Shown: piece by piece, positions 40-18,900 of the stretch
How the letters are laid out: each line of letters starts with the position of its first letter
How positions within the stretch are numbered: the first letter of the stretch is position 1
NCBI RefSeq assembly: GCF_003334815.1
Contig: NZ_QOWO01000048.1
DNA: 25,066 bases
DNA from: Escherichia coli
Lineage (GTDB): Bacteria > Pseudomonadota > Gammaproteobacteria > Enterobacterales > Enterobacteriaceae
Reading direction: 5' to 3' (one strand)
The notes under the pieces: model-generated
The model's database searches: none
Seen by the model: the letters and a program-made list of their open reading frames with translations, nothing else
Told to the model about the DNA's origin: nothing
Translations under genes and position numbers: made by a program

Positions 40-336
40 TCAGCCGAGAAGAATTTCCCCGCTTATTCGCACCTTCCCTAGGCCATTAGCTAACAAAGCA
101 AGATAATTCGCCCTTAACCTTCTAGCATCAGCAAGTGAGATAGCTGGGAAAGCACCTATCCCTATCATTGTTCTTTTTTTTGTAGTTGGTCGTTGATAGC
201 GAAAGCGCCAGAGTTTTTTACCGTTTGTTTTCACTATCAGAAAAAGCCCATCACCATCATGCAGTGTTAGATCCTTATCTAGCGCTTTAGCACGTAGAAC
301 TTCGGTGTTGCTCAGAGGGCGTGTTGTCCGAGCCAC
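40..336 (-). pseudogene. P4-family (phage-type) tyrosine integrase, N-terminal fragment only (98 aa, then in-frame TGA at 40-42)
   Basis: Translation MARTTRPLSNTEVLRAKALDKDLTLHDGDGLFLIVKTNGKKLWRFRYQRP... matches the N-terminal arm-binding domain pattern of P4-like integrases (DGDGL..L.V...G.K.W.FRY). GTG start at 334-336 preceded by AAGGAG (revcomp of 344-349). Integrases of this family are about 400 aa; no catalytic domain continues in any frame through positions 1-39. Lies directly downstream of the ssrA 3' end, the classical island integration site. Confidence 0.6.
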
Positions 337-408: not shown

Positions 409-519
409 AATCACTGGATTTAGCGGGATATCCTCGGACAACGGTAGACACAAAAAAGCCCACAGGGCTTGCGCCATGCGGGCTTTCAGGATTTCTCCGG
501 ACGTATCCGGAAGAGCAAG

Positions 520-882
520 TGGTGGAGCTGGCGGGAGTTGAACCCGCGTCCGAAATTCCTACATCCTCGGTACTACATGCTTAGTCAGTCTTTACATTCG
601 CTTGCCAGCTGCGGACGGACACGCCACTAACAAACTAGCCTGATTAAGTTTTAACGCTTCAACCCCAGGCAGGGCTTCCACGCGATCTCTTTTGGGTTTG
701 ACCTCTCTTGATCCCCGTCCTAAGAGCGGAGGCTAGGGAGAGAGGGCTCTAAGCAGGTTATTAAGCTGCTAAAGCGTAGTTTTCGTCGTTTGCGACTATT
801 TTTTGCGGCTTTTTACGAGGCCAACCGCCCCTCGGCATGCACCTTGGGTTTCGCAAATCCCGTCGAATCCAGAATCAGCCCC
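520..882 (-). ncRNA. ssrA: tmRNA (SsrA, 10Sa RNA), 363 nt
   Basis: Reverse complement reads GGGGCTGATTCTGGATTCGACGGG at the 5' end (882 downward) and ...GTTCAACTCCCGCCAGCTCCACCA at the 3' end (to 520), matching E. coli tmRNA. Internal tag reading frame present. Confidence 0.97.
761..793 (-). other. ssrA: tmRNA tag-peptide reading frame encoding ANDENYALAA plus stop
   Basis: Reverse complement of 761-793 is GCAAACGACGAAAACTACGCTTTAGCAGCTTAA = A N D E N Y A L A A stop, the canonical E. coli degradation tag. Confidence 0.9.
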
Positions 883-896
883 AATGTGTAAAGGTA

Positions 897-926
897 AGTA
901 TACCAGATTTATGAGCGCCATGACCA
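897..926 (-). promoter_or_regulatory. ssrA: Putative ssrA promoter (-10 TATACT, weak -35 TGGTCA)
   Basis: Reverse complement of 897-902 is TATACT, about 14 nt upstream of the mature tmRNA 5' end, consistent with a short precursor leader. Candidate -35 TGGTCA is the reverse complement of 921-926 at 18-bp spacing. Inferred from sequence only. Confidence 0.4.
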
Positions 927-1096
927 GCCTCAATGGCGTTATCGTTAAAGATTTAGCACCCATGTAGCCTGATTTTTATTCGATTAAGCAATGGGATGGC
1001 AACATTTGTGTCGGATGTGATAGCCAATAAGATGTTCATTCGCGCCGCCGGAGAGGGAGGCGCGGTGAGGAACTGGTCAATAATTGGAGTGCAGGT

Positions 1097-1579
1097 TTAA
1101 CGGTGGGCGTTTTTCATGATACGTGCTTTATCCACCTGCCATTCGCGCTCTTTGATATCTGAACGTTTATCGTGCTGTTTCTTACCTTTGGCGACGCCGA
1201 TTTTCACTTTGCACCAGGCATTTTTCCAGTACAGGGAGAGCGCCACTACGGTATAGCCTTCTCGATTGACGCGACCGTACAATGAGTCCAGTTCGCGCTG
1301 GTTGAGAAGTAACTTGCGGGTACGGGTAGGATCGCACACCACATGCGTGGAGGCCACGGCCATTGGCGTGATGTTAGCGCCAAACAGAAATGCCTCTCCG
1401 TCACGCAGAAGGACGTAGCTGTCGCTGATATTGGCTTTTCCTGCGCGCAGGGATTTAACTTCCCAGCCTTGCAGGGCAAGTCCCGCTTCGAACTCTTCTT
1501 CGATAAAGTATTCGTGACGGGCGCGCTTGTTAAGCGCGATGGTCGCTGAACCAGGTTTATGTGCTTTTTTCTTCGTCAT
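1097..1579 (-). CDS. smpB: SsrA-binding protein SmpB (160 aa)
   Basis: ORF translation [45 protein letters not shown]... matches SmpB; immediately upstream of ssrA in the same orientation. Confidence 0.97.
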
Positions 1580-5733: not shown

Positions 5734-6360
<627 letters not shown>

Positions 6361-14600: not shown

Positions 14601-14749
14601 TCAGGGATCCCCACCATCTTCGCTCGAAATGCATCGATATTTTTTCAGAATGCTCATTAAAATATCATTTTTTCATGCGACCGTCATCAATGTGAGAAAT
14701 AAAACACAATGAGTAAAATCTTATGTTTAATTTATTTGTGGGGTTTTAA

Positions 14750-18730: not shown

Positions 18731-18752
18731 AGTGTTGCCTTTTTGTTATCAA

Positions 18753-18784
18753 TAAAAAAGGCCCCCCGATTTGGGAGGCCTTAT
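18753..18784 (-). terminator. pheL: pheA attenuator terminator (leader 3:4 hairpin)
   Basis: On the minus strand: AAGGCCTCCC-aaatc-GGGGGGCCTT followed by TTTTTT, lying between the pheL stop and the pheA start. Confidence 0.75.
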
Positions 18785-18828
18785 TGTTCGTCTTCGCATT
18801 CTGTTTCACACGACGAAACGCCTCCCAT

Positions 18829-18876
18829 TCAGGGGAAGGTAAAAAAGAATGCGAAGAAAAACGGTATGTGTTTCAT
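18829..18876 (-). CDS. pheL: pheA leader peptide PheL (15 aa, Phe-rich)
   Basis: Reverse complement reads ATG AAA CAC ATA CCG TTT TTC TTC GCA TTC TTT TTT ACC TTC CCC TGA = [15 protein letters not shown]; seven Phe codons, the classical attenuation leader. Confidence 0.85.
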
Positions 18877-18900
18877 GTTTGTTTCCTTAAGTGACTTTAG

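Follow-up and report, generated by a model that had tools for sequence, protein, structure and literature searches.

Positions 520–1579 of the analysed stretch (25,066 nucleotides of Escherichia coli contig NZ_QOWO01000048.1, assembly GCF_003334815.1, in the following called the window) are almost certainly a canonical E. coli trans-translation locus, smpB followed by ssrA, with the stump of a P4-like island at the 3' end of ssrA. A sequence-only reading of this region had described a complete trans-translation module. The locus is real and was rightly interpreted, and all that lies within its coordinates is already known. The following features make up the module:

1097–1579, minus strand: smpB, encoding the SsrA-binding protein SmpB of 160 aa (ATG at 1579–1577, stop at 1099–1097); based on the open reading frame, NCBIfam, a PDB match and identity to K-12.
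883–1096, minus strand: spacer of 214 nt between smpB and ssrA, holding the predicted ssrA promoter and a short 5' leader; based on a promoter scan and 100% identity to K-12.
520–882, minus strand: ssrA, the mature tmRNA of 363 nt; based on ARAGORN, Rfam RF00023 and identity to K-12.
758–793, minus strand: tag reading frame within ssrA, consisting of the GCA resume codon, ANDENYALAA and TAA TAA; based on ARAGORN and translation.

ARAGORN found one tmRNA gene in the whole window, located at 520–882 on the minus strand and 363 nt long. A covariance-model search had been proposed as the check on this gene and recovered tmRNA at exactly the same positions; the claim of an intact tmRNA of 363 nt is confirmed. 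The RF00023 match reached 295.8 bits compared to a gathering score of 47 (E = 5e-121), and its alignment covers model positions 1–374 of 374 with no truncation. The acceptor stem, the T-arm (GCGGGUUCAACUCCCGC) and the internal helices are all aligned to the model. In the 7-bp acceptor stem of the tRNA(Ala)-like domain GGGGCUG pairs with CAGCUCC, including the G3·U357 wobble formed by bases 880 and 526, and the stem is followed by ACCA, that is the discriminator A and an encoded CCA. The Rfam E-value together with the 100% identity to the K-12 gene rules out a match by chance.

Translation from 796 to 755 gives V-ANDENYALAA-stop-stop-P. Within this frame the GCA resume codon occupies 793–791, the ten sense codons 793–764, the first TAA 763–761 and the second TAA 760–758. 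ARAGORN likewise reports the tag peptide with its double stop at tmRNA positions 90–125, the GCA resume codon being at position 90. The sequence-only reading had placed the canonical tag ANDENYALAA at 761–793; the peptide is indeed the one translated here, and that interval spans the ten sense codons and the first TAA.

The protein partner is intact as well, as had been claimed. SmpB scores above both NCBIfam equivalog cut-offs (222.2 bits against 130 for NF003843 and 182 bits against 119 for TIGR00086) and is identical to the K-12 protein. Its residues 1–160 match residues 1–160 of chain 5 in PDB entry 6q98 with E = 2e-106, and the full-length matches are to E. coli SmpB in cryo-EM entries of ribosome–tmRNA complexes (6q98, 7acj and others). 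The basic C-terminal tail, which is needed for engagement of the A-site and the mRNA channel, is included, and frameshift, premature stop and loss of the tail are all absent.

We compared the locus with E. coli K-12 MG1655 by BLAST. The DNA is 100% identical to this strain over smpB, the spacer of 214 nt and the full 363 nt of ssrA, and no part of 520–1579 deviates from what is the most thoroughly studied trans-translation locus. The locus thus has the same DNA as K-12 smpB (b2620) and ssrA (tmRNA, also 10Sa RNA), and it lies among the same neighbours in the same order: ratA, yfjF, bamE, recN, nadK and grpE, and further on pheL-pheA, RyfD and clpB. When the search was extended to complete E. 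coli genomes, ssrA was present at 99% identity or more in 5,426 of 5,426, in agreement with the description of the module as a conserved core feature.

In E. coli, alanyl-tRNA synthetase (AlaRS) charges the tRNA-like domain of tmRNA through the G3·U357 wobble, and SmpB binds this domain and brings tmRNA to ribosomes that have stalled on non-stop mRNAs. Translation then restarts at GCA, ANDENYALAA is added and the ribosome is released at the double TAA. The added peptide directs the protein to ClpXP and related proteases, which degrade it. The K-12 gene has been characterised by experiment, and as ssrA of the window is 100% identical to it, we infer both alanine charging and tagging activity for the latter. 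Judging from this identity and from what is established for E. coli, the locus would work by the same scheme, with charging through G3·U357, delivery by SmpB, resumption at GCA, addition of ANDENYALAA and termination at the double stop.

The two genes had been called co-oriented with no strand given; both lie on the minus strand, with smpB first and ssrA second in the order of transcription and a gap of 214 nt in between. Upstream of ssrA a TATACT −10 element is located at 902–897. The distance to the mature 5' G at 882 is exactly 14 nt (896–883), where about 14 nt had been estimated. TATACT is an extended −10 element with TG two bases upstream (TGgTATACT), and a weak −35-like element, TGGTCA, is found at 926–921 with a spacing of 18 nt to the −10. 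In the promoter scan this candidate showed 9 of 12 matches with the TG present. As suggested by the sequence and by established knowledge of E. coli, ssrA would be transcribed from its own sigma-70 promoter (TGGTCA, 18 nt, TGgTATACT). The resulting precursor would have a short leader at its 5' end and, at its 3' end, a trailer of about 70 nt that stops at an intrinsic terminator, and would be trimmed to the tmRNA of 363 nt.

Alternatively, smpB and ssrA might form a single operon expressed from the smpB promoter alone, the TATACT being a chance match to the consensus. The terminator scan found no minus-strand site resembling an intrinsic terminator between the two genes in the 214-nt spacer, and promoter-like sites in the region are no commoner than in shuffled sequence (3 found compared to 2.4 expected), both of which would fit such an operon. 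However, the −10 is TG-extended, and a start about 7 nt downstream of it would leave a short leader of the kind that RNase P removes. The spacer is moreover unchanged relative to K-12, and E. coli ssrA reportedly has its own promoter, which yields a precursor transcript, as Komine et al. are said to have described in 1994. Given the extended −10 at the right distance and the knowledge of the E. coli gene, we regard a purely smpB-driven operon as unlikely and assign it only a slight probability. Transcription of ssrA from its own promoter remains the preferred reading.

The situation is different on the other side of ssrA. The match to K-12 ends precisely behind the CCA of the gene, between bases 519 and 520. 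In K-12 the CCA is followed by the cryptic prophage CP4-57 with intA, whereas in the window it is followed by the stump of a different P4-like element with an integrase cut by IS5. The sequence-only reading had seen the relevance of the module in its role as anchor for the adjacent island. This role was borne out: the island lies on the low-coordinate side, at 1–519, and only its stump is in the window. From ssrA towards the window edge, the stump consists of:

450–519, minus strand: 3' trailer of ssrA, with a small hairpin and, after it, an intrinsic terminator (stem at about 486–455, then a T-run); based on a terminator scan and RNA folding.
355–408, no strand assigned: imperfect palindrome of 54 bp with four GGTATAC/GTATACC units; inverted repeats I3 and I8.
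78–336, minus strand: 5' fragment of a P4-type tyrosine integrase gene, first 86 codons; based on NCBIfam NF007246 and identity to the integrase of strain 14EC001.
1–77, no strand assigned: terminal 77 bp of IS5, whose inverted repeat ends at 77, with the CTAG target at 78–81; based on matches to IS5 copies.

The trailer, with its strong terminator, folds with −32.9 kcal/mol (z = −3.9). It is a sequence of the island type that differs from K-12 directly after the CCA and is not present in WB61, a strain without the island. The palindrome sits between this terminator and the integrase gene, just upstream of the start of the latter. One half of it, the 22-mer GTATACCTAANCGTATACCAAT, occurs once in the window. 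The same 22-mer is found at both ends of the intact island of 14EC001 (positions 14628–14649 and 26321–26342 of the region taken from that genome, L005), with 0 occurrences expected by chance. The repeats at 355–408 are probably arm-type binding sites of the integrase and part of the attL of the island, as their position and their occurrence in 14EC001 suggest. In a permissive Rfam search of 1–1750 two matches to microRNA families also fell on this palindrome; both were below threshold and were discarded as noise. Direct and inverted repeats in 1–1100 other than I3, I6 and I8 were short matches in two copies and were treated as chance.

The integrase fragment matches residues 1–85 of the 413-position profile NF007246 with 95.5 bits, compared to a cut-off of 434. 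It represents only the N-terminal, arm-binding portion of the protein; through the insertion of IS5, whose end interrupts the gene after codon 86, it lacks the catalytic domain. The reading frame stays open beyond the junction and reaches base 40 within IS5. Over its first 86 residues the protein is identical to the 397-aa integrase of 14EC001, and the sequences diverge after residue 86. At the DNA level, E. coli chromosomal matches to the locus begin at base 78, while bases 1–77 recur in thousands of copies on plasmids and chromosomes and are located exactly where an annotated IS5 transposase element ends. A later end of the mobile element was considered, as plasmid matches to 1–90 reach 87–90. 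We judged this to be a chance extension: about 2,800 IS5 copies share the CTAG, all chromosomal matches to the integrase start at 78 and the protein diverges after residue 86. The junction of IS5 and integrase (77/78) was found in 0 of the 5,426 complete E. coli genomes when these were searched with bases 1–700.

Related islands without this insertion are found in other genomes. From base 78 through ssrA and smpB the window is 100% identical to 14EC001 (NZ_CP024127.1), and about 340–385 other complete E. coli genomes match it from base 78 onward at the same identity. 14EC001 carries the arm-type repeats and the integrase N-terminus as in the window. In these genomes, however, the 397-aa integrase is complete and the island measures about 11–12 kb, where the window has IS5 at base 77 instead. 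In 14EC001, ssrA is followed by the 397-aa integrase and a P4-like satellite with psu, ogr/delta, an Icd-like protein and a P4-family primase, and the island ends next to ypjA. Taken together, the comparison indicates that 1–519 is the stump of a P4-like satellite island, comprising trailer and terminator, arm-type repeats and integrase fragment, and thus a remnant and not an intact island. It also points to the 3' end of ssrA as the attachment site of such an island. As a separate observation, 14EC001 contains two hypothetical genes between psu and the integrase (23486–25044 of L005), a position at which variable cargo is often found in P4-like satellites; the window has neither gene.

We then considered the opposite ends of the attachment site. 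On the far side of the 14EC001 island BLAST detected no long direct repeat matching the ssrA 3' end. By alignment, a short degenerate copy (CTCCGCCAGCCCAATCATG) was found at the distal end of this island, next to ypjA. Strain WB61 (NZ_CP020025.1; 2501–2900 of the region L006) provides an island-free site in which ssrA is directly followed by ypjA. Here ssrA matches positions 1–356 only and then continues with CAATCA instead of TCCACCA. Judged by its sequence, the natural isolate WB61 thus appears to have a tmRNA with neither the partner of the G·U wobble nor the CCA end. The ssrA of WB61 was also the weakest among the matches listed from across the 5,426 genomes. In K-12 the attR remnant psaA reads CCGCCAGC-CCACCA. 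Alignment of WB61, the distal end of the 14EC001 island and K-12 psaA shows the ancestral chromosomal side as CGCCAGC followed by CAATCA, CCCAATCA or CCCACCA, with T357 lacking in every case. Since T357 is absent from WB61 and from the K-12 attR remnant, we assign the seven terminal bases of ssrA (T357 to A363) to the island side of the junction, along with the trailer and the terminator; all of these would be island-borne.

The existence of such truncated ends raises the question whether the gene in the window could itself be a decayed or excision-scarred copy, either lacking T357 as after excision of CP4-57 or representing a displaced attR fragment, and thus tmRNA-like and non-functional. 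Alleles of this kind do exist in E. coli, as the ends of WB61 ssrA and K-12 psaA show, and ΔU357 abolishes trans-translation (PMC10107115). The 3' end in the window however reads CAGCTCCACCA, with T357 present and CCA encoded, and all 363 nt are identical to the functional K-12 gene. We consider this explanation refuted by the intact end and the K-12 identity and give it hardly any weight. Even less credible is a permuted (two-piece) tmRNA, a tRNA-like chance match or another RNA family: the permissive Rfam search of 1–1750 did return tmRNA_permuted (RF04321) with 32.7 and 18.8 bits under its permissive E-value threshold, but these matches stay below the gathering score of 47 and overlap the full-length match to standard tmRNA at 295.8 bits, and ARAGORN calls a standard one-piece tmRNA, so that the relative scores refute a permuted gene. 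The gene at 520–882 is an intact standard ssrA.

The arrangement closely parallels that of CP4-57 and ssrA in K-12, which was reportedly described by Kirby et al. in 1994. In both cases a P4-like element with an integrase gene, of which only a fragment is left in the window, lies at the 3' end of ssrA and supplies T357 through CCA together with a similar terminator hairpin, and in both the ancestral chromosomal side lacks T357. The two differ in the type of island and in the sequence of the 3' trailer, and in the window the integrase is cut after 86 codons by IS5, with the far end of the island falling beyond the window. Islands at ssrA are a published theme, with CP4-57 in E. coli and CP4So in Shewanella as examples, and the island-borne ssrA end of the window repeats this theme and opens no new question.

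Excision of CP4-57 deletes U357, inactivates trans-translation and switches ribosome rescue to ArfA/RF2 (PMC10107115). As the integrase in the window is cut by IS5, self-excision of the island is not expected. The island would supply the 3' end of tmRNA while IS5 has destroyed its integrase, and the strain may therefore be locked in a tmRNA-on state with no switch of rescue to ArfA/RF2 by excision. We put this forward as a tentative reading that we would not call probable; it requires that no other integrase acts in trans and depends on the sequence past the edge of the window. If true, it would be a strain-level variation on a known phenomenon and not a new system.

For the annotation, the value of the locus lies in the landmark at 519/520, which separates core chromosome from mobile-element remnant. 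It also fixes the identity and orientation of the window as E. coli chromosome nearly identical to K-12, running from ssrA to clpB. Some biological colour is added by an important RNA gene that appears to receive its terminator and its seven final bases from an island, and by an IS5 copy that disabled the integrase of this island.

Across 520–25066 only two base differences to MG1655 were found, at positions 5896 and 25063. The former lies in grpE, where a change from G to A leads to V44I in GrpE; the latter falls in the intergenic stretch that separates clpB from rrsG. Over this backbone of 24.5 kb the strain thus lies extremely close to K-12, and yet it carries a different island at ssrA. 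Two further RNA elements within this backbone gave gathering-level Rfam matches, both in line with the gene order of K-12: the Phe leader (pheL attenuator) at 18752–18877 on the minus strand with 132 bits, and the sRNA RyfD at 22183–22321 on the plus strand, upstream of clpB, with 125 bits.
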